A stretch of DNA of 59,735 nucleotides from Candidatus Woesearchaeota archaeon (lineage in GTDB: Archaea; Nanobdellota; Nanobdellia; SCGC-AAA011-G17; UBA489), in contig CAYMIM010000016.1 of NCBI GenBank assembly GCA_964390715.1, positions 1 to 59,735 on the forward strand. Reading direction: 5' to 3'. Positions 1,456 to 58,775 of the stretch are shown here, piece after piece. Under the pieces are notes generated by a model. The model saw only the letters and a program-made list of their open reading frames with translations, did not search any database and had not been told where the DNA came from. The position numbers and the translations under genes are program-made. The first letter of the stretch is position 1. Each line of letters begins with the position of its first letter.

Positions 1456-1462
1456 GCTTAGG

Positions 1463-2401: not shown

Positions 2402-2409
2402 TTTATAAA
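2402..2409 (+). promoter_or_regulatory. TATA box (TTTATAAA), leaderless spacing to ATG 2431
   Basis: The 8-mer centre lies about 26 nt upstream of the start codon. Confidence 0.5.
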
Positions 2410-2430
2410 GTTCTAAATTAGTTTCTTTTT

Positions 2431-3303: not shown

Positions 3304-3332
3304 AATATCTAACAAACAATACCGGCTAAAAT

Positions 3333-4130
3333 TTATTTTCTAGCAACTTCATCGACTTTTATCTGGAAAACTATTTTCGTCCAAATGAGCAAGACTATAC
3401 CTACGATCAAATAGAGTGTTAAGGGAGTTAAAGGCAAGAGAAAATCAATTCCTTTTGTGTAAGTGACGAAGAGTGAAGAGAGCAAATATAATACTAAACA
3501 TAACACGACTAAGTAGATAATAAAAGGAAGAATAATTCTGTGTGGTCTTTTTAGCATTTTTCCCGTGTGCTTGAGCGTTGTCAGGAAGGATTCATTGCCT
3601 AGACGCGTGAGCGCCGCATGCGTTACAAAGAAAAGCACGAAGAGCAATACTCCTTTTAAAATAAGCGTGTCTATTTCGTCGAAGATACTAAATGTTATTG
3701 GGATCATTAAGATGAGCAAGATAAACACTAAAGCTATAGCACTTATCACACAAAACTTCCAGAAAAACGATTTGAAAGACTTTATTGTCTTCTCTTTGAC
3801 GGTTTTCCAGACGATGCTTTGCGTCGCGCACCAGATGATGAACAACACTAGAGGGATGATGACATAGATGAAGAACATCGCTTCGTTGGTAAGACTTTGA
3901 AACTGATCTAAGAATTGCGCTACTTGCGCTTGACTCGCTCCTTGCGGTATTCCCGCCGCGTTATTAGCGAATCCTTGCAGTTGTGCTATGTAAGCTGCCA
4001 GCTTATTTCTTGCGAAGACTGTGAAGAAGAACGTCAAGAAAAAGAACGCCAACTCCGCTAATAAAAGCACGTAGATTTTCTCTTTCAAGAGTCTGAGGGA
4101 TTTTTTGAGGAACATGTTTAACGTAAACAT
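3333..4130 (-). CDS. Polytopic membrane protein (about 6 TM), last gene of the giant-protein operon
   Basis: Repeated 20-25 residue hydrophobic stretches. The start overlaps the stop of the giant gene by 13 nt; an alternative ATG is at 4113-4115. Confidence 0.55.
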   Translation of the reverse strand: MFTLNMFLKKSLRLLKEKIYVLLLAELAFFFLTFFFTVFARNKLAAYIAQLQGFANNAAGIPQGASQAQVAQFLDQFQSLTNEAMFFIYVIIPLVLFIIWCATQSIVWKTVKEKTIKSFKSFFWKFCVISAIALVFILLILMIPITFSIFDEIDTLILKGVLLFVLFFVTHAALTRLGNESFLTTLKHTGKMLKRPHRIILPFIIYLVVLCLVLYLLSSLFVTYTKGIDFLLPLTPLTLYLIVGIVLLIWTKIVFQIKVDEVARK

Positions 4131-10100: not shown

Positions 10101-11290
10101 GCAAGCGCATAATACTCCGTAATACTAGCTTTCAAAAGATCTTGTTTTTCTTTTTCCTTGGGGTTTTGTGTTACCTGCGTTGTAGAAGAAGACTGTATTT
10201 GATCTGGTCTTGGCACATCTGCTTTTGTTGCTTTGAGTGTTTTTGCTTCTCTGGTTACTTTGTTTTTGAGTGTAACTTCTAAAGAAGTTCCTTTGACGTC
10301 GCTAGCAATACTTTCGACATACCATGAAGACCCTTTATAGAGATCATCTCCTTCTGAAAGATATGCTGCTTGTGCATTGCCATTTCTATTCACTAAGAGA
10401 CGTACTTTATCGCTGATACTCTTAACACTATTGAGACGCAGGGTGTATCTGTCAAATAATCTTCCGTAGGTAATATATCCACCACGATTAGCGCTTAATG
10501 AACGGGAAGTTTGACCTACAGCCAGTGTAATAGGGGTTTGTGTCAATGCATTGAGTTGATTATCATAAACCATGAAAGAGGCTTGATTTCCTTTAACTTC
10601 TGTGGCTTGGAGATATCCTGCATAGAAACTGTGATCTTCTTTTGTTAGCTTCCATTCTTCTAAATTTTGTGCTGTTAAAATATCTTGGACAGGACCAAAG
10701 AATAATCCTTCTGATACATCGAAGAATATACGTGCGTCAATATCGAGAATAATTTCATCAGGCACTTTTCCTTCCTGTGGAATCTGACGAATAGGAATAA
10801 CTAATGTACCTAGATTATCATAAGTCAATTCGCGATTTTGAGGAACAATATGAGTGATACGACCAACAGATACTGGCAATCCTTGCGGAACCGTTGTGAC
10901 TTTTTGACTTCGAATAACAATGTTCCGAATTTTTGGCACGGTGATAGTAGGGTTAGTTGGTGTGCCGCTGATTAAAGCATGCACAAAAATACCAGAATCT
11001 TCCAATAAAGAACTACGAATAATACGTGGTTGATAATCGTCTACCTGGACAATAATATCTTCACCAATCAGATCTTCTGGACTATCTATAATGCCCTGTA
11101 AATCATCCAGTGTTTCATCGCGTATAGCTTCTCCTTGTCGTGTGAAATCATTTGGAATATCTTTAGAACGATCAATGGTTTGTTGTCCCGCTGAAGATGT
11201 TGGGTTGGCTGCATAAGCCTGCTCTAAGGGTAGCATCATGACTAGCAAAAGCAAGAAATACGTCGTCCACCTTTTTTTTTCTAAAAACAT
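4118..11290 (-). CDS. Giant secreted multi-domain surface protein (about 2390 aa)
   Basis: Uninterrupted ORF. The track start is TTG 11299; ATG 11290 gives MFLEKKRWTTYFLLLLVMMLPLEQAYA, a signal peptide. Also present are coiled-coil and Lys/Glu-rich segments, a hydrophobic segment (FCFVTFAVVWVKNFF), a Cys-rich core (about 6500-7910), an IPT/TIG-like domain (about 5860-6075) and a C-terminal TIM-barrel-like module (about 4118-5250). Confidence 0.85.
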   Translation of the reverse strand: MFLEKKRWTTYFLLLLVMMLPLEQAYAANPTSSAGQQTIDRSKDIPNDFTRQGEAIRDETLDDLQGIIDSPEDLIGEDIIVQVDDYQPRIIRSSLLEDSGIFVHALISGTPTNPTITVPKIRNIVIRSQKVTTVPQGLPVSVGRITHIVPQNRELTYDNLGTLVIPIRQIPQEGKVPDEIILDIDARIFFDVSEGLFFGPVQDILTAQNLEEWKLTKEDHSFYAGYLQATEVKGNQASFMVYDNQLNALTQTPITLAVGQTSRSLSANRGGYITYGRLFDRYTLRLNSVKSISDKVRLLVNRNGNAQAAYLSEGDDLYKGSSWYVESIASDVKGTSLEVTLKNKVTREAKTLKATKADVPRPDQIQSSSTTQVTQNPKEKEKQDLLKASITEYYALADKKEKTEETKDFSNIVEKIKTNFIDNTDGVTITTKNQAFNLLKLIRNYYAQKRVELEAAINLETNNAQKSLLIKARDDVSNRLTPLENILKQQENISQEPSNIVATDSPVTLYRLAIAEYEHLINAYPVVKDKVVAAHWKIANLALLPGINDRAGAINHLEIMLRNYKPEEYQSIATKETIQKLLDLLNSLQSDFQSAIAEVKDPSTNDIFYVTLIGGSSVPDSQKSKATIEVEGYPAKEYREGEQLLQDDKDQLKWFVKEIRDSEIILIEDKTKQQESLTKNQAKSINTGTNTKRNIKLTKADMKKEVSITISPNTEAAFSEAIFSLHIPIEKRALDLPLFSDSYEDEIAKTEDLLAKLDKIIDNVGKITEYWKKFCFVTFAVVWVKNFFSGVFGGSGAVARERTNEAFEKKYDEYRNLGTEDPKNCRALSYDECVFKNQAEYDHMISQSQTAINAANKGDYNQEAFKDLGKEYDDSKKNLGYYGNLVSQDPSNQQYRDKYYELDARLTRASEEKKFTDKFFTEGRIKTYDEVKASGVDADKIVGTYKKDIVEKFNPPKDKQEDNAFLWRTYSTRFLPLQRETDINTNMKTHLEDVQKKGTSLGAPTEKDNDYIGKLKESYGVITTTQLGEFKHNPNVAVLDQGRQKGYTEFISIDAFNYLQVSYNTAGRPTKYDLYKRSQPNGRMGSPSDVYLGVVDGQLMDRYQKIKSEKDNPDKGIYDNIKKGQDCVGVINKKNAGGKYSRGEVIPLQSVDCGGLGAYTIDTAAASIGASCTEFMSPGDCKLLFNACDPVICPPSRCNLGGEWQVDNVIQTGIIGSALLCLPNFGIEPLGIGKPGGVVMPICLSGIYAGLQNIRSVIEGYRQCLITSKVSGRSVGICDRLRSYGICEILWKEGLALFSAKKGIFRNIVNFFLGKSGSGGGEYSSFEKAVDSSVGSLQYFTQSYAKNTFAMYNGGALPELGTEICKAAIFGKAPGLGNMFDQISKPESPPQFTAFFDEAPYSDLGNQPLSQYKVTYHIYAGDNEDIIYSVYMQALDPYTGQFIIQPHVLKDSKGITQNRRLPRGSFADESPDVILPSGMKEICVEINSKIYGRKVECGFGKVSTSFAIDYISDQFAQNEAKKQISTSAQCVPTSPPTITELGAVEGTAGTVSSGFIQSGIIRKCSKYNPGVGGDEVKWSPVGTCGEDDRERDLGTCWLYVPAAKNAIKEVSARLDLNTSLAKTAQEVVNEAEKQGETIPGYYILKKEDIALKEKEADAIIKNANTPNAFESGRAIYQQVIGSALLDDPDGARMQFKLAESYELEARISLKKQTSVTTTTVRVPALTSLSQTEINNDKETKIILKGSKFDEIFGIEASGTILDPKDFPMKRLNENEIELTIASGAAPNVYNLKVINVNGQKSSALTLTIKSGTSTQTIETTKEVCSIIETYWSDGKNVIVEVLQGRNVYLSLEWRGDCKDELVMATVMKVRKTLRMDWLARDEIITTLGIPFNEPNKQTWKALLTNDEEDEEYYFIALSRNGQEKTSETIKVKRAIPNKNVISMPTRKKQTSTEKSLPDNNFQSTNPSTITSTGTTSGSDFNKILNKNPSQQENSIFTTNTQLKDTSEEIQTELLSCNPNGNNAEHPLGMTISLFIDRDYAECANTVLKAKEKGATAVNIIPTLKGYIDKNDRVKRYMWPKTYPNAENKIVDNENIEYIKEKLTACFSAVLDNDMDLSIRPHLDYGGDGEGTTWRNGYIFNPVENLAGYSYKDVLLEPIAIALHDALAQTRSTNIVDFTMQGEMGRTLFEYTSNWLSLVKEYRAKMPKNVRIGINTNFNNLNGKRDDANLFSSDEEKIEFQKLIDVVDILGLSAYYSVSYYPQQRDFKAMKEYYLKTFKNNDIKIPVKISLQFSEIGIGGGSGDMVDAIRNPWKGVSNCNDQSSPWKTQSMIDLRRAYYAQLLSALNEGFIDRAFTWNADSWDVQELYRTAQCGDETIAKMIENYNQGCLR

Positions 11291-11291
11291 T

Positions 11292-13268
11292 TTACTCAAG
11301 CGCTGGCTTCTTCACCTCATTATTTTGTTTTTGCACAGCTTCATAAACCTTACTTACCTCTTCGATAGACTTGGGTGTTGGACCACGGAGCGAATAAAAG
11401 GTTACCTTTCGCGCATTAGCAACTGCCGCTCTTGATATGGTCCAGCTTGTTGAGGAACCACCGCCAATGATCTGCTCTAATTTTGTAGCTTCGAATTTTT
11501 GCTTAGCACATTGTCGCGTTGTTAGCCCCGCAATACCTAAAACACCTTTCTGTGGAACATCATTACAAATCTCTATTTCTTTTTCTGGGAAATTAAATCC
11601 ACCAGCATTCTCGACAATAATTCGTGTGGTAACTAGCGTATCTCCTGGAATCAGCTTGATGGTTTTTTGATCTGGATAGAGGATTGTTGTAGCATATTTT
11701 TTCTCTTGATTGTCTAAAGTAATCATGATTTTTTCTGTCTGATAAGGAGAACGCTCTTGCTGATTATCGATTACTTTTATATCGAGAGTCACTTCTTTAA
11801 TAGGTTCGAGATAGACTACTACTTCTCCTGACGCAGTATTTGTTGAGACTGGCAATTCACCCCGATGGTATCCTTCTTTCTCCGCGATCATCACCCCATC
11901 AGAGCATTGTGGAAACATAGTTGTGAGCGCCGCTCCACGAGCATCCGCAAGGGTTACTCCACGATCACAGACTTGATCTAGACACTTATATGAGATTCTC
12001 GCGTTTGGCAACTCTTGGAGACTATCATCAGCACGATACGCCGCCGCGACTATAGTTAATTCTTTACCTGGATACTGGCAAATCTCCGCTTGAGCATCAA
12101 AACTTACAGGGGTGACCCGATTTTCCCGGGGTTGGTTATGGTCGATGACAACGAGTGTCGCGAACTGAAACATCGAGTCACCATCCTGCAAAGAAATGAG
12201 CATGGGAAACTTAAGATTGTAGACAAAATGGTTGTCATTCATACAGAACAGTGGCAGGAGGAAACGACTGGCGGCATTTTCAGCAGTGAATGGTTTTCCA
12301 CGGAGGATTTCTTCATTTTCTCCTACCACGTCCATGAGGAGCGGCCATTGCTCTTGATAACTAAAGAGAATACTCGCGTCTGTCTTTTTTGACAACGCGT
12401 CAATAACAAAGGATTTAGCGTCTTTCGCGTTTTCCCCATATCGCGATCCTTCAATGCGAAGCGTTGGGAAATTCAGAGCAAATATTTTCTTGAGCTCCTT
12501 TTGAACGTTTGTTTTTAGCCAAGCGCGCGGAGCGCATTGCGTGTCAATACCAGAGAAGGGAATAGTATCATAGACTGTCATCATGTCTATCGCTCGGTTC
12601 TCTAAGTAATAGTCTGTGCTTTCTGCTTGCATCAGTTCAACAGCAGTTTGGTAAAGTTTTCCCATCCTGGACTTGATGGTCTTCTTGAAAGTGGTAAATG
12701 TAAAGGAAAAATCATCTTTGGTCAAAGTCAAAGGATACTTTGTTTCTATTATCATCGTTTCTTCATTGATGATGATTTTGGAGCGTGGCTGCTCTTCACT
12801 GAATCCATACCCCTGATCTTTTAATGGCTTGAGATCATTGAGACATTGCTTTATGTTTTCATCGATATACGCCGCGAGTCCGGTTTCCATCTGCGCTTTG
12901 GTAGGAACTTGATTTTTCCGCAAACTATTTTCCGTCTCCGTCAACCAATAGGCTACCTGACCTGATCCTGTATTAAAAATATCAAGCGCATCTCCAAAAG
13001 GACTAATGAGTGATGGTACTTGTTCTTGCGGCAATTCCATATATCCTCCTTGTGCGCTCATGATCGCGATGCCTTGCGTCGCTAAAGTTTCCAAGCACGT
13101 GTCTACGTAGATTTTCGCGCGCTCCGCCTGTGGCGGGACTGTAAGAGATTTTTGCAGTTCTTGTCCTGTAAACGCTGAGAAAATTTCCTGACGGAAAGTA
13201 AAGACTGTCACACCTAACGCGAGGATTACAATACCCAGAATAATGAACGCCGTGACTTGTCCTTTCAT
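11292..13268 (-). CDS. N-terminally anchored extracellular protein (658 aa), uncharacterised
   Basis: ATG start. The N terminus MKGQVTAFIILGIVILALGV is a KGQ-plus-hydrophobic stretch resembling an archaeal class III (pilin-like) signal or anchor. Its stop is 1 nt before the giant-gene ATG, and its start overlaps the upstream stop (TAATG). Confidence 0.7.
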   Translation of the reverse strand: MKGQVTAFIILGIVILALGVTVFTFRQEIFSAFTGQELQKSLTVPPQAERAKIYVDTCLETLATQGIAIMSAQGGYMELPQEQVPSLISPFGDALDIFNTGSGQVAYWLTETENSLRKNQVPTKAQMETGLAAYIDENIKQCLNDLKPLKDQGYGFSEEQPRSKIIINEETMIIETKYPLTLTKDDFSFTFTTFKKTIKSRMGKLYQTAVELMQAESTDYYLENRAIDMMTVYDTIPFSGIDTQCAPRAWLKTNVQKELKKIFALNFPTLRIEGSRYGENAKDAKSFVIDALSKKTDASILFSYQEQWPLLMDVVGENEEILRGKPFTAENAASRFLLPLFCMNDNHFVYNLKFPMLISLQDGDSMFQFATLVVIDHNQPRENRVTPVSFDAQAEICQYPGKELTIVAAAYRADDSLQELPNARISYKCLDQVCDRGVTLADARGAALTTMFPQCSDGVMIAEKEGYHRGELPVSTNTASGEVVVYLEPIKEVTLDIKVIDNQQERSPYQTEKIMITLDNQEKKYATTILYPDQKTIKLIPGDTLVTTRIIVENAGGFNFPEKEIEICNDVPQKGVLGIAGLTTRQCAKQKFEATKLEQIIGGGSSTSWTISRAAVANARKVTFYSLRGPTPKSIEEVSKVYEAVQKQNNEVKKPALE

Positions 13269-47439: not shown

Positions 47440-47960
47440 GAAGAATTATTTTCATTGGGACTATACATTGTGGCGCTACGAATGAAAAAGAGTTAGAGTC
47501 ATTATTAAACAACTATAATCCTGATCAACTTCTTGTTGAAATAACACAAGAAGACCTCGATAAAAATAGAATAAATTCTTACCCTCCAGAAATGATTTTT
47601 GCATATAAATGGGCAAAAAAGCATAAAATAAAAGTCAATGGTTTTGACTCTCCCATAGATACTTTAAAAAAAGGCCATACCGCAGAAGATGATAAAAGAA
47701 TAACTGAAGAACAACTAGCGATAGTGAAAAAATATAACTGGAAGGACTTTAATAAAGAAAGTTATTCAAAAAAATTGATGTTTTATGATACATCTATAGA
47801 CTTAAAAAAACACAAGGCAAGAAATGAAGAGATGACTAAAAATATAGAAAGTTTAATACAACCAACTGGAACTGTTGTTATCTTAACAGGCGCTGGAAAT
47901 CTTAATTACTTTGAAAAACATGTCAAAGGCGCTGAATTTCCTCTGCGTTATCCTAAATAA
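47436..47960 (+). CDS. TraB/PrgY-like small protein (tentative)
   Basis: The N terminus IIFIGTIHCG...NPDQLLVEI resembles the TraB family GT-x-H...VELC start. ATGA overlap with map. Confidence 0.35.
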   Translation: MRRIIFIGTIHCGATNEKELESLLNNYNPDQLLVEITQEDLDKNRINSYPPEMIFAYKWAKKHKIKVNGFDSPIDTLKKGHTAEDDKRITEEQLAIVKKYNWKDFNKESYSKKLMFYDTSIDLKKHKARNEEMTKNIESLIQPTGTVVILTGAGNLNYFEKHVKGAEFPLRYPK

Positions 47961-50653
47961 CTTGGCCTTTGCGCAATGACACTGGCTATTTTTGCTTTTC
48001 TCAAGTACTTCTCTTCTACGTCTTTGTATCTTTTCAGATCTTCTTCTTTGAGCGATGGAGAAACTTTACTCAATGCTTCTTCAAAGTCTGCGCTCGTGAC
48101 TTCAGTGGCTTCATTGTCTTTTCTAAGCGCATGCATGGCTGCTTCACGAGCAATACCATAGATGTCTGCACCGCTATATCCTTCTGTTCGCTCTGCTATC
48201 TTGTCTAGGTCAATATCTTTTGCCAACGGCATTTTACCAATATGCACTTTCAAAATTGCTAGACGTGATTCCTTATTAGGCATGTGTGCTTGGATGACTC
48301 TGTCGAATCTTCCTGGACGCAAAAGACTTGGATCCATGAGATCGGGACGATTTGTTGCTGCAATAACTACAACATCCGCTAATTCTTCCAGACCATCCAT
48401 TTCAACAAGCAGTGTATTGACAATACGCTCAGTCACATTTGAACCGATGTCTGTTCCTCTTCGCGGAGCGATAGAATCAATTTCGTCGAAAAAGATAATC
48501 GTCGGAGCCGCTTGTCTTGCTTTTTCAAAAATCTTGCGAACTGCTTTTTCTGATTCACCTACATATTTATTTATCACTTCAGGTCCTTTGACGGAAATAA
48601 AATTTGCTTCAGATTCATGAGCAACAGCTTTCGCCAACATAGTTTTACCCGTACCTGGAGGACCGTAGATTAAGATGCCCCGTGGCGGTTTGATGCCGAG
48701 GCGTGAAAACATCTTTGGATTTTTGAGTGGCCATTCCACAGCTTCTTTCAATTGTTGTTTCAACTCTTGTAATCCACCAATATCTTCCCAGCGCGTTGTT
48801 GGTCTTTCAATCAAGACTTCACGAAGAGCTGATGGACGAACTATCTTGAGTGCTTCCTTAAAATCTTTTGGCTTTATTTTTAACTTCTCTAAAACTTCAG
48901 GAGGAATCTTTTCACTTTCATTTTTTAAATCTGGCAGGACACGACGAATGACATTCATAGCCGCTTCCTTACATAACGCCTGAAGATCCGCGCCAACGAA
49001 TCCGTGTGTAATCTCTGCTAATCTCTCAAGTTCTTTCTTTACACTTTTGTCTCTGACACGATCATAGAAACTTGAACTAATAATTTTAAGCTCCTTAAGA
49101 TCCCTTATAATTGGCTCTAAGTCTTCAGCAATTAATTTACTCTTCTTTTTTTCCAAAAGTATTGCTCTGGCATCACTTTCTTCTATTTTCTCTTTATGTC
49201 TTTCTATTTGATATAATTCTTCTATGACTGCGTCTAATTTATCCTTTTGTGAAAATAATTTGCTATACTGCTCTAATTTTTCTAACTTCGTATTTACTCC
49301 ATGTAGTATATTTGCAAGCTTATCTAAGAAGGACTTTTCTCCAGCTTTTTTCACTTTTAATTCATTGATCTGCTGTTCTGTTTTTTCTCTTTCTACCTTA
49401 TTATCTTTGAGATGTACTTCTATTTCATACACTAACTCTTTCCCCATAATCTCCTTATCTAGAGGGACTTCTATAGGCATATTACGAGTATGAATTTTTA
49501 AAATATTGAGACGGCCTTTTTTATTTGGAACGCCTATGGATATTTCTCTGTCAAATCTTCCAGGACGACGTAACGCTGGATCAATAGAATTTGGACGATT
49601 TGTTGCACCAATAACAACCACTTTACCACGACTCTTTAATCCGTCCATAACCGTTAACAATTGCGAAACCATTCTTCTCTCAACCTCTCCATAAGTTTCG
49701 TCACGCTTTGGAGCGAGAGCATCGATCTCGTCAATGAAAATAATAGAGGGAGCATTTTTTTCCGCCTCCTCAAACAAATCACGAATACGTTTTTCTGTTT
49801 CCCCATAGAACTTTGATGTAAGCTCCGGTCCGTTTACAAGTAAAAAGTTTGCCTCAGTTTCATATGCTACTGCTTTAGCTAACAATGTTTTACCAGTTCC
49901 TGGAGGACCATAGAGCAAGACTCCTTTTGGAGGCTCCACACCTAAACGCTCGAAGATTTCCGGGTTCTTGATAGGAAGCTCGACCATTTCTCTCAATTTA
50001 TCGATCTCTTCTTTTAATCCACCAATATCTTCATAGGTGACATCAGGGACACGCTCTTCTGTTACCTGCACCGCCTTGGAAGACACTTTAACTTCTGTAT
50101 TCTCTGTAATAATAACCGCGGTCTTAGGATTTGATTCAGCGACAATAAATTTCAAACTACCAAAACCAAAATTACCCATGAATCCCTCTTCGAACACGTT
50201 GAAGATATCATCGAAGTTTGATCCTGAAAGCGTTCTGCGACGACGTCTTGCTCCACCAAGAGAAATAATATCTCCTTTGACGACCGCTCTTCCCAGTAAT
50301 CCTTGCTTGAACAACTCATTATTCGCTTGAATCATGACACCTTGCTGCGCTGGCGCGATGGTGACTGATTTCGCTTCTTTTACTTCTACTTTTCTTACCT
50401 TGACATTTTCACCAATACCTGTTTTCGCGTTACGACGAAGGATACCATCCATACGAATAATCGTTTGACCAATATCAGAAGGATAGGAACGATCGACAAT
50501 ACCTACGGTCTTCCTGCCACCTTCAATTTCAATGATATCTCCCGCGCGAACGTCAATCTGACGCATGGTCTGCGCATCTATACGGACGATACCTTTGTAG
50601 GCTTCTTCCTGTAAAGCTTCCTGCACTTTGAGTGAGATTTCTTGCTGCGCCAT
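47948..50653 (-). CDS. cdc48: CDC48/VCP-type AAA+ ATPase with large insertion in D1
   Basis: It has an N domain and two AAA modules (GPPGTGKT twice, DEID twice, SRH regions). The length is 901 aa, with a Lys/Glu coiled-coil block between NMPI and [13 protein letters not shown]. Confidence 0.9.
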
Positions 50654-51118: not shown

Positions 51119-51772
51119 ATGGATTTACTGACTGATTTTATTAATAGTTTAAAGAAGGAATTGACGGTCGTCTATGGTGGTCCCGCATCTGGCAAGACTC
51201 TCCTCTGTCTGACCGCCGCCGCGCATATAGTGAAACAGGGGAAGAAAGTCATTTTCATTGATACTGAAAAAGGATTTTTTATAGAACGATTTCAACACCT
51301 GCTTCACTCCCAAGATCCAAAATATCTAGATTTAGTCATTGTTTTCAGACCAGCAAATTTCAAAGGACAGCATGAACAGATTTTGCAACTGGAAAAAATT
51401 CTTCAACAACCCAACATAGGACTGCTCATTGTAGATACTTTAGGCTATTATTACAGAAGGCTCTTGAAGAACAAAACGCTCTTGGCAAACAGAATGCTGA
51501 TTATGCAAGTGAACACGCTGCGCTCCTACGCAAAACATCTTCCAGTCATAGTCACCAATCAAATCTATATGGACATCGAGACACAGGCACAGAAAATTGT
51601 TGGAGGAGAGATTTTATTACGGTCTGGACAACGCATTATTGAACTCCAGAAAGATCCTAGAAAACTACTGCTCAAGCAACCTGAGAAAAAAGAATCACTT
51701 TTCACCATCGACGCCACTGGCTTCCACTTTTGCGTTCTTTTCTTGCTGCTTTTTTATCCACTCTTCCTTTAG
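51119..51772 (+). CDS. radB: RadB (RecA/RadA paralog)
   Basis: It has Walker A GGPASGKT and Walker B LLIVDT, and is about 217 aa. The hydrophobic last 25 codons overlap the topA 3' end on the opposite strand. Confidence 0.7.
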   Translation: MDLLTDFINSLKKELTVVYGGPASGKTLLCLTAAAHIVKQGKKVIFIDTEKGFFIERFQHLLHSQDPKYLDLVIVFRPANFKGQHEQILQLEKILQQPNIGLLIVDTLGYYYRRLLKNKTLLANRMLIMQVNTLRSYAKHLPVIVTNQIYMDIETQAQKIVGGEILLRSGQRIIELQKDPRKLLLKQPEKKESLFTIDATGFHFCVLFLLLFYPLFL

Positions 51773-53809
51773 TTTACATTGCTTGTTAATACAGTAATTA
51801 AAAGGACGCTTTCCCTGGCGGATGATCAGGACTTCCGGGAAATTACACTCTTTGCAGAAATTCTTCGTTACTTTTGGCAGACCTTGCGGCAAACCGAATG
51901 TGGCTTTACATTTTGGATATGCTGAACAACCGACAAAATTGCTCTTGAATTTTGGCGAATATCTCAATTGCAAGTCGCCTTGCTTGCAGAGGGGGCAGGG
52001 AGCAATGGTACTCATTTCCGTGCGCGTTTCTTTGGTCGCTAGTAATAATCCTTGACCGATCTCTTTCTCGTGCTTCTTGAATGTTGTCAATATTTTTGTC
52101 AATGATTCCTTGGCTTCTTTGATAATATCTTCTGGCTTCTTTTTTTCCTCGCGAATTAATTCCATATCTTCCTCAAAGTGACGAGTCAAATGCTCATCGA
52201 TAATTTCTGGACAATATTTTTCCAGTGTCTCTACAGCCGCGATGCCCAATTTTGTCGCCTCAATAGATTTTTCATGCACATATTGTCGTCGATAGAGCGT
52301 GTCAATAATGTTTGTGCGTGTCGCTTTTGTTCCAAGATTTCTTTTTTCTAATTCTTTGATGATAGACGCTGGAGTAAAACGCTTGGGCGGTTTTGTCTGG
52401 TCTTCCAAAGAGGTTACTTGTGGATTCTTGACTTCCATACCTTCTTCCATAGGCGGCAATTCTTCGTCTTTTTCTTTCGCGTAAGCCCCATAGAAGGTAT
52501 ACCAACCAGCTTCTTTCGTGACTGATCCACGAGCGATAAAGTTTTCTCCATTGACGTCAATATCTGCTTTCATCAATTCATTTTTCGCTGGGTCTGCAAA
52601 TGTGGCTAATGTTCTGCGAGCGACTAGATCATAGATTTTAGCGTCTCTTTCTGTCAGCTTCTTTGGCACTTCTCCTGTCGCGTGAATAGCTGGGTGAGCT
52701 GGATCATTTTTTGGACCTTCATTGGGCTTGAGTATTTTTTTCTTGAGCAATCGCTCCGCTAACTCCTTGAACGCGCTTTGCTTGCCTAAATCTTGGATAA
52801 TTTTTTTGTAGTCTAAAGCGATAGGCAACTTATTAGAGCTAGAACGAGGATAAGAAATATATCCATGGAGATACAGATTTTGCGTGATGGACATCGTCTC
52901 TTTAGGAGAGATACCAAAACAACGATAAGCTTCTGTCTGCAAAGTCGTTAAGTCGAACGGATAAGGTGGCTGGACCAACATCTCTTTTTTCTTGACGGAA
53001 GTAACGACAGCTTTTTTTCCTTGTGTCTTTTTCAACACTGTCTCCGCTTTCGCTTTTTCCCAGAACTTGTCTTCTTCGTGCCACGCGATGATGGGTTCTT
53101 TATCGACATTACCCTCGAGCTTTAATTCCCAATAGGTTTCTGGCTTGAATTTCGCGATCTCACGATCTTTGTCTACGATGATTTTCAACGCTGGCCCCTG
53201 GACACGACCTGTCGAGAGAATTTTGAACATACCCGCGGTTTTCAGCGCCAAAGTTAACGCGCGAGAGTTGTTGATTCCATAAATCCAATCCAATTCGTGA
53301 CGAGTAATACCCGCGTGCGCTTGGTCCCAGTCCATGTGCTTCATTTTGCGCTCATAAGAGTCTACTAAATCTTTCTTCGTTAACGTTGAGAATTTCATTC
53401 TATTGGCATCTTTTTGGCCGCAGGCGAAACGCACCGCATTCAATCCCAAGACTGTCCCTTCGTCATCGAAATCTGTGCAGACGGTGAAGACATCCGCGTT
53501 TTTCGCCAGCTTTTTGAGCGTGTCAATAAAGTCTTTGGTTTGACTGGCGAATTTTCCCTGCTCATACAACGGTTTCCATTCATAACTGAAGACTGGATAA
53601 GTCCATCCTTTTTTGTCTTTCTCCGCAAGACCATAGAGATGGCCCAGACAACTAGCAATGATAATGGGTTTTCCTTTATGGGCGAAAGTATAATACGTGA
53701 CTTTTTTGTTTTTTCCCTGAGTAACTTTGTCATCCGCCAGAGCTTCCGCTATCTTCTTCGCGCTTGTTGGCTTCTCCGCGATAAGCAACTCATACGATTC
53801 CGCTTTCAT
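51695..53809 (-). CDS. topA: DNA topoisomerase I (type IA) with C-terminal zinc ribbons
   Basis: It has a Toprim N terminus (LLIAEKPSxAKKIA, DxDxEG as TDFDDEG) and a catalytic Tyr region (GYISYPRS). C-terminal CxxC...CxxC fingers are present. Confidence 0.9.
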   Translation of the reverse strand: MKAESYELLIAEKPTSAKKIAEALADDKVTQGKNKKVTYYTFAHKGKPIIIASCLGHLYGLAEKDKKGWTYPVFSYEWKPLYEQGKFASQTKDFIDTLKKLAKNADVFTVCTDFDDEGTVLGLNAVRFACGQKDANRMKFSTLTKKDLVDSYERKMKHMDWDQAHAGITRHELDWIYGINNSRALTLALKTAGMFKILSTGRVQGPALKIIVDKDREIAKFKPETYWELKLEGNVDKEPIIAWHEEDKFWEKAKAETVLKKTQGKKAVVTSVKKKEMLVQPPYPFDLTTLQTEAYRCFGISPKETMSITQNLYLHGYISYPRSSSNKLPIALDYKKIIQDLGKQSAFKELAERLLKKKILKPNEGPKNDPAHPAIHATGEVPKKLTERDAKIYDLVARRTLATFADPAKNELMKADIDVNGENFIARGSVTKEAGWYTFYGAYAKEKDEELPPMEEGMEVKNPQVTSLEDQTKPPKRFTPASIIKELEKRNLGTKATRTNIIDTLYRRQYVHEKSIEATKLGIAAVETLEKYCPEIIDEHLTRHFEEDMELIREEKKKPEDIIKEAKESLTKILTTFKKHEKEIGQGLLLATKETRTEMSTIAPCPLCKQGDLQLRYSPKFKSNFVGCSAYPKCKATFGLPQGLPKVTKNFCKECNFPEVLIIRQGKRPFNYCINKQCKLKEEWIKKQQEKNAKVEASGVDGEK

Positions 53810-53923
53810 ACTATGAACTAGTCCATCCCGCTATTAATAAATCTTTTTAGGCCTTGTTGATTCTGTTGAGAATGTTGTCGCTTAGCGTGACAGTCAATAA
53901 TAGCATTTAGAAGTATCGAACAG

Positions 53924-54616
53924 TTATTTTAATTTATTTTTTAATAGTCTCAAGCTTCTTATTGTGCTAGAACAAAATTGTCCTACTTCGTGTTCTTTTA
54001 AATCTTTAAATCGCAGATCCACATTTCTAAAGGCGTTTTTAAACAATTTTAGAGCATCTTCGTTTACGACCGCTGTGATAAACTCTTCTATCAACTTAAT
54101 AACTTCTTGGTTATGTCTAAACGTATGAATATTAATACGAGTTGTTAAGTGCGCTATATCGTAGAGGTCTTTGAATTCTCTTCTACTGATGAACGTCACC
54201 ATCTTTGTGATAAATAGCCTTTCCGGAGAATAATACAACAATTTTCCTTTATTATGAAGATTCCCAGAGATTTTAACAAAATCAACATCTATTTTTGTGT
54301 CAAATGTTTTATATGTTTCTAATTGTAGTTTCATGTGGTATCTCTTGGTAGCCGCTAATCCGCTCTTACCTTTTGAGAATTCTTTAAGAATCTTTTTTTG
54401 TTTTAGTTTTTCCAGAATGTTGATAAAATACGCTTCTATTTCTTTATAATCTTTTAGACGAGATATGTCTACATCAAAATCTAGGTCTTCAGATTCACGA
54501 TGGTGATCGAGATACAACAAAGATAAGGCTGTACCTCCTTTAATAACAAGATTGTAAGGATTGTTTCTTTCAATTTCATTCAGAAATTTTTCTAAAATTG
54601 CAAGTATCCTTGACAT
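53924..54616 (-). CDS. AbiEii/AbiGii-family nucleotidyltransferase toxin
   Basis: LVIKGGTALSLLYLDHHRESEDLDFDV is the family GG-T-A...S-x-D-L-D motif. Confidence 0.7.
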   Translation of the reverse strand: MSRILAILEKFLNEIERNNPYNLVIKGGTALSLLYLDHHRESEDLDFDVDISRLKDYKEIEAYFINILEKLKQKKILKEFSKGKSGLAATKRYHMKLQLETYKTFDTKIDVDFVKISGNLHNKGKLLYYSPERLFITKMVTFISRREFKDLYDIAHLTTRINIHTFRHNQEVIKLIEEFITAVVNEDALKLFKNAFRNVDLRFKDLKEHEVGQFCSSTIRSLRLLKNKLK

Positions 54617-55222
54617 TCAAACTCCGTATTTCGCATAATTAATTATTTCTGGTTTTTGAATATATGACTTAAATTTGGTATAATTTTTTACAAATAGATT
54701 TCCATACCTATTTAACATTTGTTTCCATACATTTTTCGCATATGTATTTTTTATTATGTTTATATCCTTGATTATTTGCTCATTGTCGGCATATTTTAAT
54801 CCTGTCTTTTTGTCGATGGAATATTTACTTTTTTCTATTGATTTGACTCTGAAAAACTTTACTGTTTTATGCGCAATACTAAGTTTTCCTTCTATCTTTG
54901 TGTTTATGATCTCTATGATCTTAGACTCAAAATACCACCCAAATCCATTATGTTTCAACGCTTCTAATCCTGTGATATAATAAGACTCTAAGCTACCTAA
55001 GAATACATTATACTCGCTTATACCTTCAATGCTACTGTCCATACATCTCTTAAGTATGTTTAACTTACCTCTCATTTTTCCTCTTAAATACCTTTTTTCG
55101 TTATCTGTTAATTCTTTTCCTATATCGAGTTTTTTTAGTATATTAAATTGCACTGGTTTAAAGAGCGTTGGAACTATTAAATCCTCCATTTCCACTAGTT
55201 TTTGTATTATTTTTTGATGCAT
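54617..55222 (-). CDS. Putative AbiEi-like antitoxin partner
   Basis: Its stop directly abuts the AbiEii ATG (TGAATG). The assignment is by position and size only. Confidence 0.4.
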   Translation of the reverse strand: MHQKIIQKLVEMEDLIVPTLFKPVQFNILKKLDIGKELTDNEKRYLRGKMRGKLNILKRCMDSSIEGISEYNVFLGSLESYYITGLEALKHNGFGWYFESKIIEIINTKIEGKLSIAHKTVKFFRVKSIEKSKYSIDKKTGLKYADNEQIIKDINIIKNTYAKNVWKQMLNRYGNLFVKNYTKFKSYIQKPEIINYAKYGV

Positions 55223-55289
55223 AGGATATAAATGTATCCGCTACTATATAAATGCTTCTATCAAAAATAGTGGGTGTATTTGGAAATGC

Positions 55290-55366
55290 TCATCCGTAAA
55301 CGCTTCCGCTATCTTCTTCGCGCTTGTCGGCTTCTCCGCGATGAGCAACTCGTATTTTTCAGGCAT
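55290..55366 (-). pseudogene. Displaced topA 5' fragment (copy B)
   Basis: The minus strand reads ATG-MPEKYELLIAEKPTSAKKIAEAFTDE then diverges and stops. In the 52-nt core I aligned there are three third-position differences from the live topA start. Confidence 0.8.
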
Positions 55367-55444
55367 GATTATCTTTCTGTTGTTTGTATATTTTTATGAA
55401 GTGCAGCGAAAAAAGATAAACCCAGCACATGTTCTCTATTCAAA

Positions 55445-55801
55445 CTACTTCTTTTTTCTTACTGCTTTCTTGAATTTTTTGTCTAAATATTCAACTTCAT
55501 TCAGCATCATTCTTTTAAGAAGAGTCCATTCATAGAGATTGTGAGTTTTTCCCCTGTATTTGTCCCAATATTTCCTATTTAACTGGTTAGGAGCATCTTC
55601 CAGCTTCATTAGCCTGCCTTTCCAGAAAATTAAAACATAGACATTGCCATTATGAAGTTCGAGAGGAACTCTCCATCCAAAAGCATCGTGATCTTCTTTA
55701 TAAGGAGAGAGCTTATCTAAAATCTCCAGATCTTTCTTTTTCAAATTCTTTAATCTTGCTCCAAAATCATTATACCTTAAGTAAAAAGTAGTTGTCCCCA
55801 T
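55445..55801 (-). CDS. Hypothetical 118-aa protein coupled to Arch_ATPase gene
   Basis: ATG 55801 lies 1 nt after the ATPase stop (TAA-A-ATG). I recognise no family. Confidence 0.5.
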   Translation of the reverse strand: MGTTTFYLRYNDFGARLKNLKKKDLEILDKLSPYKEDHDAFGWRVPLELHNGNVYVLIFWKGRLMKLEDAPNQLNRKYWDKYRGKTHNLYEWTLLKRMMLNEVEYLDKKFKKAVRKKK

Positions 55802-55802
55802 T

Positions 55803-57170
55803 TTATCTTTTCTCAAGTATATCTTCCATGTCTTTTAAATCAAAACAATAAACTTTTTTCCCTTCAAACTCTTTAATTTTTTTGGTAAAGCTTTTCGCAA
55901 AAACAACAAAGCTCTCTTTTCTTTCATCATTATTCCATGCGATATACTTTGATTTTTCTAAAAGCATTTTTACAATTTCGAAAACATTAACCTTCTCTTG
56001 CCATTTGCACTCTCCAAACAAGATACTTTTTTCCTTATTATTCACCGCAAGAATGTCAATTTCTTTGTCCTTATACCACCATTTGCCATTATCCTCAAAA
56101 TTTTTGAAAAAGGATAAAAAATTTTCCCTGATAAGCATCTCAAACCGTTTTCCTAAATAGCTGTTTAATTCATCATTATTTATTTTATACTCTCGCTTTT
56201 CTATTGACTCTCTATTTTTATGCACAATATTAAACCAAAAATCAAAAAAATTATCCCTTATATAATAGATACCTCTTTTTCTATCTCCCAACATAGAAGT
56301 TTGTCTCGAGATAAATCCATAATTTATCAAAAGCTCTAGATAGGGATATATCTCCCTTGCCTGAATTCCAACAAAATTCGCAATTCCAGAAGGTCGTGAA
56401 CTTCCATACGCAATCGCATTTATAATAGAAAAATAAGTCTTAATCTCTTTAAACTCCTGCGCAAGCAAATAAACAGGCTCTCGAAAAAAATAACCTTCCG
56501 GCTTTAAAAATTCTTCTGAGACAAACTCTGAATATGCCTTATGTTTAGAAGCAATATTGAGGTACTCTGGGATTCCATTTATTGTCAAAAATGTTTTTAT
56601 CAAATCCTCAAAATGAAAAGAGAGAAATTCATTTACAAATCCAATAGGAATTGGCGCTAGTAGAATATCTCTTGTTCTTCTTCCATAAAGAGGAGAAGAG
56701 CTTGACAAAACTTTCTCACTCATTAATCCGAATAAAGAGCCGCTTGTGATGAAAAAAATTCTAGATTCTCTTAAGAATTCATCATTAAATTTTTGTAAGA
56801 CGCTTGTGACAGAAGAATCGTTTTTTATTACGTAGGATAACTCATCTATCCATATGTATATCCTTTTCTCTTTACTTAAAACTTTTGCAAGATAATCAAA
56901 TAAAGAACTCCAGTCAGAAATATGCTGTTTCAGCAAAAAATCATCCTTGAGATACTTCGCTATTATGTCTTTAAATTGCACGATCTGCACAGCTTTATTA
57001 ACATCCTCAGCAGTATACTTTATCCCTTCTTTATTCTTAACAAACTCATTTAACAAAGTAGTTTTGCCTATTCTCCTTCTGCCAAAAACTACGATAAATT
57101 CATTTTTCTTGCTTCTCCAGTCTTTTTCAAGAACCTTTATCTCCTCTATTCTATCAATAAACCTAATCAT
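55803..57170 (-). CDS. Archaeal ATPase (Arch_ATPase/ATPase_2) with C-terminal DUF234 module
   Basis: FIDRIEEIKVLE...VVFGRRRIGKTTLL is the Walker A region and IYIWIDELSYV is Walker B. There is a wH-like middle region and a C-terminal EIDILAV...ILFGECKW, which is DUF234, PD-(D/E)xK-like. Confidence 0.75.
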   Translation of the reverse strand: MIRFIDRIEEIKVLEKDWRSKKNEFIVVFGRRRIGKTTLLNEFVKNKEGIKYTAEDVNKAVQIVQFKDIIAKYLKDDFLLKQHISDWSSLFDYLAKVLSKEKRIYIWIDELSYVIKNDSSVTSVLQKFNDEFLRESRIFFITSGSLFGLMSEKVLSSSSPLYGRRTRDILLAPIPIGFVNEFLSFHFEDLIKTFLTINGIPEYLNIASKHKAYSEFVSEEFLKPEGYFFREPVYLLAQEFKEIKTYFSIINAIAYGSSRPSGIANFVGIQAREIYPYLELLINYGFISRQTSMLGDRKRGIYYIRDNFFDFWFNIVHKNRESIEKREYKINNDELNSYLGKRFEMLIRENFLSFFKNFEDNGKWWYKDKEIDILAVNNKEKSILFGECKWQEKVNVFEIVKMLLEKSKYIAWNNDERKESFVVFAKSFTKKIKEFEGKKVYCFDLKDMEDILEKR

Positions 57171-57230
57171 AATTAGTACTAATCTAAATTAGTATATAAA
57201 TCTTTCGCTCTTAAATCAGTGTTTGTAGAG

Positions 57231-57292
57231 TCCGCTATCTTCTTCGCGCTTGTCGGCTTCTCCGCGATGAGCAACTCGTATTTTCCAGGCAT
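57231..57292 (-). pseudogene. Displaced topA 5' fragment (copy C)
   Basis: The minus strand reads ATG-MPGKYELLIAEKPTSAKKIA then diverges. It is identical to copy B over about 60 nt except for one base. Confidence 0.8.
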
Positions 57293-57317
57293 GCAAGCAT
57301 CTACTAATTCTAAGGTG

Positions 57318-58775
57318 TTAAAAATGTTTCTTTCGCTTAGCTCTATCTTTTGAGCCAGTCATATATTTATAAACTACAAAAGCCACCATCAATGCTAATA
57401 AGAAAACTACACCCCATAAATCTTTATTCAAAAGGGCTTTTGTTATGTTTGATCTCTCTTTTTCCCGTGTTTTTTCTTTAGCTGGCTCTTCTGGAATCTT
57501 CTCAATAATTTTTTGTCTCTTTTCCTCTCTCTGCAGTTTTGTTACTGTAATGGTTATCATATTTTGATTTATATCTTCAAGCAAGATCTTAATATCCTCT
57601 TCTCCATCAAAATCAAGATCTAGAGACACACCTTGTCCTTTTCCAAGATTAACTTTTATACCTAACACCGCAAAGTCTAGTAAGACTGTATCTGCGGATG
57701 GCTTTCCCACCCTCGCACTATATTCTTCCTTACCCCATAAGATGTAAATTTTTCCTATTCTTGCTACAGTATTTGTCTGCTCAACAAATTGATTCATGTC
57801 GAATGAAGCTATTGTGGCAGTTCCCTTTTGACCTCCGCCTCCGCCACCACCTCCAAGTCCATCATCACTAGATCCTCCGCTACCCCCAGAAACGCTCTCA
57901 GAAACTTCATATTGCGAGAAGCCACTTACTATAACCGCGAGCGTTTGCTCATTCAAGGTTTGTGATGTGCAAATAGTAGCTGGACAAGCATCACCGTTAC
58001 GCAACACTTGCGGGTTTGAGAAAGTAATATTATAAAAATTGAGCGCTGCCGCTATTCCTTCCAGATTCGTGAACACAGTCTCGTTGATCCGGATAGTGTT
58101 ATTTTCTATAACAACAAAAGAGTCAAAATCTATAGGAGAGTCAGACAAATTAAAATCACTTAAATTTATATTTTGAAGGAACTGAATCTTGCCGAATGAC
58201 GTGTCTTCTAACGTTAAATTAGTTACATTTTGAAGTTCTGTTTCGTTGAATAAATTAAAGTTTGTGGTTGATCCGTCGAATATCGACGCGTTTACTTCAA
58301 ACCTTATCGATCCATTGACCGCGAAAAACTTCATTGAGACTCCCATTTCATTCCCTGTATTGTTCGCGAAGACTTTGATCGCATGATATCCAAATGGCGC
58401 GTCTATGGTAGTTTGGTTCGTTCCATTGTTATCCATTACAAGCGAAATATTTACTTCTTCATCAATGGTATAAAATACCTTATCGACTGACAAGCTAGAA
58501 CTGTTTACAACAGTAATCTTTAAAGGTATAGACTCATTATTTTCGTATGTTTTATTTTCAGGCCTATTCATGGTAATTATGGGAGGTCTCGCCTCAAGCG
58601 TTGCTGAGACTGACGTTGTTCCTGATGTCGCCGCAGCATCAAACACTGAAGCAGCGTCAATTTTGGACATTCCCTCTTTGAGAATATCTGTTGAGCCTAT
58701 AACCACCAATACAAAAAGAACGCTTAAAGGAAAAAGGAACCTGAACGAGGACAGATAGTTATTACCATCGCGCAT
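57318..58775 (-). CDS. Sequon-rich secreted protein with Gly linker and C-terminal TM anchor
   Basis: It has an N-terminal hydrophobic signal or anchor and many N-x-S/T sequons. A GGSGGSSDDGLGGGGGGGG linker and the C-terminal TM VVFLLALMVAFVVY plus a basic tail follow. Confidence 0.65.
   Translation of the reverse strand: MRDGNNYLSSFRFLFPLSVLFVLVVIGSTDILKEGMSKIDAASVFDAAATSGTTSVSATLEARPPIITMNRPENKTYENNESIPLKITVVNSSSLSVDKVFYTIDEEVNISLVMDNNGTNQTTIDAPFGYHAIKVFANNTGNEMGVSMKFFAVNGSIRFEVNASIFDGSTTNFNLFNETELQNVTNLTLEDTSFGKIQFLQNINLSDFNLSDSPIDFDSFVVIENNTIRINETVFTNLEGIAAALNFYNITFSNPQVLRNGDACPATICTSQTLNEQTLAVIVSGFSQYEVSESVSGGSGGSSDDGLGGGGGGGGQKGTATIASFDMNQFVEQTNTVARIGKIYILWGKEEYSARVGKPSADTVLLDFAVLGIKVNLGKGQGVSLDLDFDGEEDIKILLEDINQNMITITVTKLQREEKRQKIIEKIPEEPAKEKTREKERSNITKALLNKDLWGVVFLLALMVAFVVYKYMTGSKDRAKRKKHF

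Follow-up and report, generated by a model that had tools for sequence, protein, structure and literature searches.

Introduction

Insertion of mobile DNA into the first codons of a housekeeping gene is known from the SXT/R391 elements in prfC and from the dusA islands, e.g. IMEVchUSA3 (PMC8409611, PMC5812530). Cis-mobilizable elements (CIMEs), described in the ICESt1/ICESt3 family and in others, are bounded by attL and attR sites, are without integration and transfer genes, and occur in tandem; in these tandems a newcomer integrates at an att site flanking the resident element (PMC5704250). In a survey of Thaumarchaeota, all 14 of 14 integrations into protein genes were 3′-distal (PMC6563490). 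Described here is a locus at the start of topA, the topoisomerase I gene, in a 59,735-nt metagenome contig from a Candidatus Woesearchaeota archaeon (contig CAYMIM010000016.1, assembly GCA_964390715.1); this whole stretch is termed the window. Three copies of the topA start bracket two cassettes. Comparison with related genomes indicates that the topA start is a recurrent integration hotspot. The arrangement probably represents tandem accretion of two integrase-less, att-flanked, CIME-like islets at the first ~20–27 codons of topA by site-specific recombination, with the integrase acting in trans or lost. The cassettes are called CIME-like because neither encodes a recombinase. For the DPANN archaea, knowledge of mobile DNA and gene flow is sparse.

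Three copies of the topA start

A repeat search shows one family of direct repeats, with three 63-nt copies in one orientation: copy A at 53745–53807, copy B at 55305–55367 and copy C at 57231–57293. A 38-nt core gives three matches in the window at one mismatch or less, compared to none in 100 shuffled sequences. This agrees with the original prediction, made from the sequence alone, of three topA-start copies in the same orientation; the copies were described there as nested, but are in fact in tandem, side by side. When the whole window is searched, this is the sole real long direct-repeat family in the 59.7 kb. The other repeat pair, 45 nt long, consists of two AAA domains inside the Cdc48 gene. 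As att sites, the copies are:

53727–53809, minus strand: att copy A (attR-like), with the foreign start ATG AAA GCG GAA TCG, the core, and native downstream codons.
55287–55367, minus strand: att copy B (internal), a hybrid of the cassette 2 right arm and the cassette 1 left arm, with its ATG at 55366–55364.
57231–57293, minus strand: att copy C (attL-like), the displaced native topA start, with its ATG at 57292–57290, reading MPGKYELLIAEKPTSAKKIA-.

Copy A is the live start, as had been proposed, and opens an intact topA of 704 aa. Copies B and C each keep an ATG and a TATA-like box and then run into unrelated sequence, forming open reading frames (ORFs) of 40 aa and 37 aa, respectively. The copy B ORF (55244–55366) reads MPEKYELLIAEKPTSAKKIAEAFTDEHFQ… and ends with ...AFTDEHFQIHPLFLIEAFI; it consists of a native-type MPEK start, the core, and the degenerate topA-like codons AFTDEH. 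The copy C ORF reads MPGKYELLIAEKPTSAKKIADSTNTD…, ends with ...ADSTNTDLRAKDLYTNLD, and departs from topA after …GCGGA.

Copies B and C are identical at 62 of 63 positions, the one-base difference noted earlier, and have an exact run of 54 nt. Their near-perfect repeat begins 1 nt ahead of the ATG. No synonymous site differs over the 54 nt; lineages differ at several such sites. Copies A and B show the three synonymous differences originally reported (TAT/TAC, CTT/CTC and CCA/CCG) and have an exact run of 26 nt. The exact zone common to A, B and C is 23 nt, ACAAGCGCGAAGAAGATAGCGGA.

The repeats appear GC-rich, like the flanking topA DNA and unlike the cassettes (as judged from the sequence, with no separate computation). 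At each copy an A/T-rich, TATA-like box can be read ~20–35 nt upstream of the ATG, a distance that would suit leaderless archaeal transcripts. An Rfam search of the repeats and cassettes for structured RNA gave no match at E-values up to 1.

A protein search with the 40-aa ORF of copy B matched only three proteins, all of them short. The ORF has a 40-aa counterpart of 90% identity (P0121) in L011, a 518-nt Hainich groundwater contig from an independent metagenome. P0122 and P0123 (JGI) are displaced topA starts of 31 aa and 43 aa that are annotated at source as “DNA topoisomerase IA”. The 30–45-aa ORFs annotated in this way in these lineages are displaced gene starts and not genes, and such mini-ORFs could act as a search handle for similar arrays in public annotations.

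Native and foreign sequence at the junctions

The live gene and the upstream flank of the array are:

51695–53809, minus strand: live topA, a type IA topoisomerase of 704 aa (Pfam Topoisom_bac, E-value = 2e-119; Toprim; Zn_ribbon_Top1).
57294–58775, minus strand: native upstream flank, consisting of a 24-nt spacer and the gene for a 485-aa membrane/surface protein.

Homologues of the 485-aa protein gene lie directly upstream of the array or the topA site in L003, L011, L013 and L014. The 3′ end of this gene is presumed to carry the original topA TATA box, CATTTTTAAC. By exact-match look-up, neither the topA protein nor the upstream-gene protein of the window is on record elsewhere.

In six related Woesearchaeota contigs with single-copy topA starts (L001–L006), all six starts read …YELLIAEKPTSAKKIAEALA(D/E)…. 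One of them, L003, is a groundwater metagenome-assembled genome (MAG) that is syntenic with the window, with the same gene order upstream of topA, and its topA begins MPEKYELL…AEALADEKV. Because this syntenic topA opens with MPEK, the MPEK/MPGK of copies B and C is taken as the native topA start of the lineage. The first five codons of the live topA (MKAES), together with 114 nt upstream of them, are foreign and cassette-borne. The topA codons from ~22 on (…AEALADDKV…) are native, as in L001–L006.

All three copies are composites. Copy C consists of the native flank, a native-type start (MPGK) and an arm of cassette 2. Copy B consists of the other cassette 2 arm, which has a native-like start, the core, and a cassette 1 arm with a degenerate topA mimic. 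Copy A consists of the second cassette 1 arm (with its putative promoter, MKAES and the TAT/CTT/CCA variants), the core, and native topA. The junctions are thus hybrid, as an attP × attB exchange predicts, and show the pattern (attL, internal att and attR) expected of two reciprocal insertions at one site. The crossover of cassette 1 likely maps within the 26-nt identity of A and B, ACAAGCGCGAAGAAGATAGCGGAAGC.

Content of the cassettes

The spacing from start to start is 1,560 nt between A and B (cassette 1) and 1,926 nt between B and C (cassette 2). All cassette genes are co-oriented with topA. The foreign composition of the cassettes is seen in a GC content of ~31% (bins of 0.31–0.32), the lowest in the window; elsewhere it is ~40% (~0.34–0.44). 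The parts of the cassettes are:

53810–53923, minus strand: cassette 1 right arm, with the TATA-like box GATTTATTAATAG ~23–35 nt upstream of the topA ATG.
53924–54616, minus strand: AbiEii-family nucleotidyltransferase toxin, 230 aa, cassette 1 cargo (PF08843, E-value = 1.4e-21).
54617–55222, minus strand: putative AbiEi-type antitoxin ORF, 201 aa, abutting AbiEii upstream (weak PADLOC AbiEi match).
55223–55286, minus strand: cassette 1 left arm, with the cargo's own TATA box TTTATATA; 140 of 142 positions identical to L011.
55368–55444, minus strand: cassette 2 right arm, with the TATA-like box ATAAAAATATAC ~20–31 nt upstream of the copy B ATG.
55445–55816, minus strand: small ORF of cassette 2, 123 aa from a TTG or 118 aa from the ATG at 55801.
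55803–57170, minus strand: ATPase_2 + DUF234 “archaeal ATPase”, 455 aa, cassette 2 cargo (Pfam; PADLOC PDC-S27, E-value = 1.7e-46).
57171–57230, minus strand: cassette 2 left arm; a TATA box belonging to the cargo, TTTATATA, lies ~25 nt ahead of the ATPase ATG.

The cargo is as predicted: AbiEii with a putative AbiEi between A and B, and an ATPase_2/DUF234 gene with a small ORF between B and C. The AbiEii assignment has a PF08843 score of 78 bits against a cut-off of 22.5 bits, a PADLOC AbiEii E-value of 3.8e-15, and matches to 26 PADLOC AbiEii models. The lone family match of the 201-aa ORF, which belongs to no Pfam or NCBIfam family, is to PADLOC AbiEi and is weak (E-value = 1.2e-3 over 50 residues). 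A homologue of this ORF accompanies the AbiEii homologue in every case (L014–L030).

The ATPase_2/DUF234 protein matches the candidate defence family PDC-S27; it is widespread in DPANN archaea, with a best outside match of 76% identity. The small 118–123-aa ORF shows no family in Pfam, NCBIfam or PADLOC, and its AlphaFold model is unusable (pLDDT 48) and too poor to justify a fold search. It lies outside the ATPase module that is found elsewhere, as homology to L031 ends at position 55767.

Each cassette has TATA-like boxes for its own cargo and for the start downstream of it. The cassette 1 right arm with its TATA-like box is kept in L014, where it aligns upstream of the live topA; this box is presumed to be the current topA promoter. 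In the left arm of cassette 1, positions 55263–55223 are part of the conserved cargo body, which is present in all contexts. The motifs shared by the cassette arms amount to weak similarity only, driven in part by the TATA boxes; the left arms of different cassettes are weakly alike (~3 in 1000 shuffles).

The scan for recombinases covered the four cassette ORFs (Pfam, NCBIfam and PADLOC) and 27 other window ORFs (Pfam). None of the four cassette ORFs has a recombinase domain, as had been stated for both cassettes. A hidden recombinase or excisionase in the 123-aa and 201-aa ORFs was considered and rejected; none is seen in Pfam at E-values up to 5, nor in NCBIfam.

Occupancy of the topA site in related genomes

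Relatives were searched for empty and alternative sites. The site shows at least four states: an IS-like TnpB ORF only, with a native start and no cassette (L003); cassette 1 alone (L011, L014, L015 and L016); cassette 2 plus cassette 1 (the window); and a different AbiE cassette upstream of a cassette 1-like arm (L012 and L013). An identical three-copy arrangement in all relatives is not what is found. Scans of genomes and metagenomes for the att pattern gave only single-copy topA starts; L014, a 240-kb NCBI contig (GCA_900218215.1), and L015, a JGI contig, were both located by way of an AbiEii search.

L014 and L015 are syntenic with the window on both sides. Here a 481-aa upstream gene is followed by a displaced start (MVGKYELLV…ALADDKVTRE…*), AbiEi, AbiEii, and the live topA (MKSESYELLV…). 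The AbiEii is 91% identical in amino acid sequence to that of the window and is in the same position. The cassette is bounded by an 80-nt direct repeat of the topA start with 91% identity, and there is no ATPase cassette. The copies of one genome have lineage-specific synonymous variants in common: TTG in window copies A and B, and CTC, GTC and GCA in L014:9141–9220 and 10820–10899.

In L011 the upstream-gene homologue is present by its 3′ end and is followed by a spacer of 24 nt, by MTEKYELL…AEALADENFQIHPLFLIEAFI*, and by the start of the same AbiEi gene as in the window. Cassette 1 here lies directly against the native flank, and cassette 2 is absent.

The left arm of cassette 1 is found in a long form (L014 and L016) and a short form (the window and L011), as shown by comparing L014:9206–9335 with window positions 55286–55264. 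The long form consists of a displaced topA copy reaching to about codon 30 (…ALADDKVTRE) and ~130 nt of extra sequence; the short form has ~23 nt in place of this whole stretch. The displaced copy in the long form resembles the native topA of the window more than that of L014.

L012 and L013 are contigs from two JGI samples that overlap with 99.2% identity over 724 nt. Their order is: an upstream-gene homologue; a first start, MQVIMSKNYELL…ALADTK|APTN…*; a different AbiEi/AbiEii pair (217 and 319 aa); and a second start, MVQKYELL…ALADEK|CLIK*, which runs into non-topA DNA. The first ~33 nt after the second start resemble the left arm of window cassette 1. A topA start therefore lies between two foreign segments, i.e. 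tandem arrays do occur.

In L003, a 413-aa TnpB-like ORF (L003:5114–6355, minus strand) occupies the exact slot of the window cassettes, and topA begins at L003:6389. The ORF has its stop 24 nt from the stop of the upstream gene and its start ~33 nt from the topA ATG. It is called TnpB-like from a C-terminal zinc-ribbon/RuvC-like motif (…CSVCG…CGYRDNADRNAAFNI…), seen by eye and not by a family scan. Insertions of more than one kind are apparently tolerated in the short spacer that precedes topA. The TnpB-like ORF was considered as a mover of the cassettes and rejected, since the window lacks a counterpart and the ORF has no accompanying duplication of the topA start.

Age and order of the cassettes

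Between L014 and the window there is a continuous alignment of 88% identity, from the cassette 1 body through the right arm into topA. Because it has diverged from L014 as much as topA has, cassette 1 was probably present in the common ancestor and inherited, and is no recent arrival. The upstream gene is ~62–66% identical in L014 and 62–69% across all comparisons, and appears to evolve fast. The argument that the cassette is far more conserved than the host flank, as proof of recent transfer, is weakened both by this fast upstream gene and by the equal divergence of cassette and topA in L014.

A cassette segment of L011 is identical to the window at 124 of 126 positions (98.4%), compared to 116 of 126 (92.1%) for L014; the flanks show 69% and 62%, respectively. 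The closeness of L011, over these 126 nt, suggests a later exchange.

Cassette 2 looks like a later addition, inserted at the upstream junction of cassette 1, because neither L011 nor L014 has it and because its two repeats hardly differ. The L012/L013 arrays have the same layout as the window, with a different newcomer upstream of a cassette 1-like arm.

Cargo in other genomic settings

The cassette 1 body consists of its own TATA box, AbiEi and AbiEii (window 55263–53919). It recurs in three settings, one of which is the topA-start arrays.

In the second setting (L017–L020), the body is found with 81% nt identity over 1,346 nt between direct repeats of the 3′ half of a tRNA-Leu gene; the repeats around the AbiE pair are 34–46 nt long and 1,580 nt apart. 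Such arrays of tRNA 3′-half repeats are a classic footprint of integrase-mediated accretion. The array of L017 (988–4823) has four copies of the tRNA-Leu 3′ half, at 988, 1130, 3198 and 4778, and the copy at 1130 lies inside a real tRNA-Leu gene (1089–1174). Its cargo is a PIN/MazE pair and a 362-aa secreted-looking protein, followed by the 1,580-nt AbiEi/AbiEii cassette. No integrase is found on this 7.4-kb contig.

In the third setting (L021:7398–8693, also L022–L030), an AbiEi/AbiEii pair with 73% aa identity lies between the ribosomal protein L1 gene (rplA) and a transglutaminase-like gene. The pair is 15 nt from the stop of the latter and has no detectable flanking repeats. Contigs from at least 24 blocks of the collection carry an identical AbiEii sequence of this type.

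Together with its promoter region, the ATPase module (57206–55767) is found with 73% nt identity in L031, beside a DDE_3 transposase and without att. The closest ATPase_2/DUF234 homologues, in four further DPANN contexts (L007–L010), have no flanking repeats. ATPase_2/DUF234 is a widespread accessory gene with which the att arrangement does not travel. Because the same cargo recurs in settings with and without att, it is the arms and the att copy that define a cassette, and the cargo is exchangeable.

Proposed mechanism and alternative explanations

In the mechanism proposed, each cassette would enter as circular DNA that carries a copy of the topA start with its own promoter and start codon, plus a cargo operon with its own promoter. 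The attP-like copy would recombine reciprocally with the chromosomal topA start and insert the circle. The displaced, truncated start would stay upstream, and topA, or the next cassette, would end up behind the cassette-borne promoter and start. Cassette 1 (AbiEi/AbiEii) would have come first and cassette 2 (ATPase_2/DUF234 and the small ORF) later, at the upstream junction of cassette 1. The cassettes would not be self-mobile; they would be moved by an integrase in trans, or represent remnants of larger elements that have lost their integrase. The toxin-antitoxin and defence cargo may favor retention through addiction or selection.

Four lines of evidence favor site-specific recombination. 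The same cargo is present in an array of tRNA 3′ halves. The repeat lengths of 47–80 nt fit archaeal att sites (29–69 bp in crenarchaeal cases; PMC6563490). The promoter and start fused to the topA mimic look like an adapted attP, as in SXT at prfC and in the dusA islands (PMC8409611, PMC5812530). Tandem integration and loss of the integrase are both on record for archaea (PMC8371274). The original prediction was of an integration hotspot where an attP mimics the start of topA. The supply of a new start and the displacement of the old one stand, as seen in MKAES versus MPEK/MPGK and in the occupancy of the site in relatives; the site-specific recombinase is a part of that prediction that we infer.

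Several observations weigh against this mechanism. No integrase is found in the cassettes, in the 27 other window ORFs, in 20 kb around the L014 array, or in L017. A free attP-bearing element is likewise missing: three degenerate att patterns gave 0 matches to the viral contigs of IMG/VR. The homology to topA does not end at one fixed point: its end varies among cassettes, and the window and L011 versions of cassette 1 differ in this from the L014 version. The att copies show 1–3 mismatches per 50 nt within a genome but 5–7 between genomes. Since copies are closer within a genome than to the equivalent copy in another genome, this indicates gene conversion or repeated recombination between repeats, and suits ongoing homologous recombination no less than a fixed-site recombinase. 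The cargo modules also occur elsewhere without att repeats. Finally, the 54-nt exact run of B and C leaves room for an assembly join that mixes strains.

A possible but less likely explanation, and the strongest of the alternatives, is homologous (Campbell-type) recombination, in which circular or linear DNA with a stretch of the topA start would be inserted, lost and reshuffled by the RadA pathway of the host acting on the 50–80-nt repeats. The array would then be a variable region kept by homology and not by an integrase. The lack of a recombinase in any cassette or array examined, the lack of a free attP, the right-hand end of homology that varies from cassette to cassette, and the concerted evolution of att copies within genomes all speak for this, as does the identity of B and C at all synonymous sites over 54 nt despite lineage variation there. 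Recombination between tandem archaeal elements, including integrase-independent excision, has been proposed (PMC8371274). However, homologous recombination leaves unexplained the first capture of a topA-start copy fused to its own promoter and to a different start codon. It also leaves the same cargo within an array of tRNA 3′-half repeats, a hallmark of integrase targets, and the exact zone common to the three window copies, at 23 nt, is a short substrate. Both processes may act: an integrase may bring the cassettes in, and homologous recombination or gene conversion may follow.

More speculative, and rather improbable as it stands, is a DPANN cassette-capture system that would resemble an integron, use host gene ends as recombination sites, and have a recombinase encoded elsewhere that shuttles minimal, promoter-bearing units of ~1.5–2 kb that lack a recombinase of their own. 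The att sites may be built from the topA 5′ end or the tRNA-Leu 3′ half, and newcomers may prefer the promoter-proximal displaced start. Such a system is hinted at, though unproven, because the window and the L012/L013 arrays each have a different newcomer upstream of a cassette 1-like resident, because one AbiE cargo is found with att sites of two kinds, and because the left arms of different cassettes are weakly similar. If it exists, each insertion would rewire the promoter and the N-terminus of whatever is downstream.

An assembly artefact, in which two strains with one cassette each at the topA start were merged through the repeat into a false tandem, is unlikely. The window is a metagenome contig, the exact run of B and C is 54 nt, and the junction that a single-cassette strain would have (native start, then cassette 1) is real in L011 and L014. 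However, a 54-nt run falls below both the usual read lengths and the largest k-mer sizes of most metagenome assemblers, and the independent L012/L013 contigs show a topA start that follows one cassette and itself precedes non-topA DNA. Even with a false join, the att-type junctions of each cassette would remain, and with them the conclusion of a hotspot.

There is little to recommend transposition that leaves a target-site duplication of exceptional length, or an origin in which the topA start was duplicated locally and unrelated genes were then inserted. The near-perfect 63-nt duplication of B and C is what such a process would leave. The A/B pair, however, is a hybrid of native and foreign arms and not one sequence duplicated, a repeat search shows no terminal inverted repeats at the cassette ends, and the same cargo lies between tRNA-half repeats elsewhere. 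Duplications of 63–80 nt are also far longer than the target-site duplications of transposons; those of casposons are ~14–15 bp.

The least probable explanation is an integron-type array with an integron integrase acting on folded attC sites: a co-oriented array of recombinase-less 1.5–2-kb cassettes with toxin-antitoxin cargo would fit, and integrons and integrase-less attC clusters are reported in archaeal MAGs including Nanoarchaeota/DPANN (PMC9668308), but the repeats are coding sequence of the target gene and differ little among themselves, TATA-like promoters are present in each cassette, no intI-like ORF is present among the window ORFs scanned, and attC-like folding was rejected, as single-stranded folds of B and C on both strands are no better than those of shuffled sequences (z = -0.47 to +1.03).

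Other features of the window

The sole tRNA gene of the window, a tRNA-Val, is 38 kb away from the array. At their 3′ ends, topA and a convergent RadB/Rad51-like gene (51119–51772, plus strand) overlap by 78 nt (51695–51772); in L014 a 223-aa ORF is found between the two genes.

The Cdc48/VCP-like AAA ATPase (47948–50653, minus strand) has 901 aa in the window, 902 aa in L014 and 760 aa in L001. The extra ~140 residues form a Lys/Glu-rich, coiled-coil-looking insert between the AAA modules, and GC drops to 0.31 there (~49000–49500).

Positions 1–11299 are GC-poor (0.34–0.38) and include a BRO-N domain protein (2431–3303) beside a 2,393-aa ORF (4118–11299). BRO-N domains are typically carried by viruses and mobile elements. 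This end of the window may represent a further region that is foreign or evolves fast.

Comparison with known systems

The first ~60–80 nt of topA are a recurrent landing site that takes defence and toxin-antitoxin cargo in several groundwater Woesearchaeota populations, and cargo can stack there without a resident recombinase gene. The target, the 5′ end of a housekeeping protein gene, is unusual for archaea; topoisomerase I receives its putative promoter and its first codons from the cassette. The locus also provides a searchable signature, i.e. duplicated gene starts or ends around up to 3 kb of low-GC DNA, by which islets and the missing recombinase could be mapped in DPANN and other MAGs. 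Keyword searches of open-access text yielded no report of topA as an integration target, or of such arrays in DPANN archaea; this is weak evidence.

With reported archaeal tRNA and 3′-end elements (from Thaumarchaeota and from crenarchaeal and euryarchaeal hosts), the topA array shares att direct repeats of tens of base pairs, tandem re-use of a site and the lack of an integrase, which in such elements can be lost after integration (PMC6563490, PMC8371274). The AbiE module of cassette 1 itself also sits in a tRNA-Leu array of this kind (L017). The topA array differs from these cases in that its target is the 5′ end of a gene and its units are very small, of operon size. With a 5′-end target, the element must therefore also supply signals for the start of transcription and translation.

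Integron arrays and clusters of attC sites lacking integrases (CALINs) share with the topA array short, co-oriented, recombinase-less cassettes, often with toxin-antitoxin cargo, that are potentially movable in trans (PMC9668308). The topA array has no attC hairpins, its sites are copies of a host coding start, and its cassettes carry putative promoters. In integrons the cassettes are mostly promoterless, with an adjacent intI/attI platform; in the window each cassette has TATA-like boxes, and no integrase-like ORF is present among the ORFs scanned.

The topA array also behaves like the elements at prfC and dusA. There, as seems the case at topA, a new promoter and a somewhat different N-terminus are supplied, so that the gene keeps its function while its former start is moved to the other junction; the sites are likewise hotspots for different elements, and tandem arrays occur. 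The mark of a 5′-end-targeting element is present in the topA array at the sequence level, namely the foreign five-codon start and TATA-like box, both conserved in L014. The prfC/dusA elements, however, are 25–100 kb long, with a tyrosine integrase, a directionality factor and transfer or mobilisation genes, whereas the topA units measure 1.56 and 1.93 kb and encode no recombinase. The former are found in bacteria; the present units are found in a DPANN archaeon, at topA. A tyrosine integrase of its own next to att, as in the prfC/dusA type, is not found in either cassette, and because of this the topA cassettes fall outside that group as defined.

A further close counterpart is CIME accretion, the sequence-level marks of which the array carries: repeats derived from the target, hybrid junctions with a reconstituted gene, variable occupancy, and no integration or transfer genes. 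CIMEs are known from Firmicutes, are found mostly at the 3′ ends of genes and tRNA genes, and are decay products of integrative and conjugative or mobilizable elements. For the topA units, by comparison, no parental element with an integrase is seen, and they are already minimal, with one cargo operon and arms. The original prediction held serial capture at the start of a gene to be unusual. In principle such capture is known from bacteria and from CIMEs; what is new is the host group, the target, and the minimal size of the cassettes.

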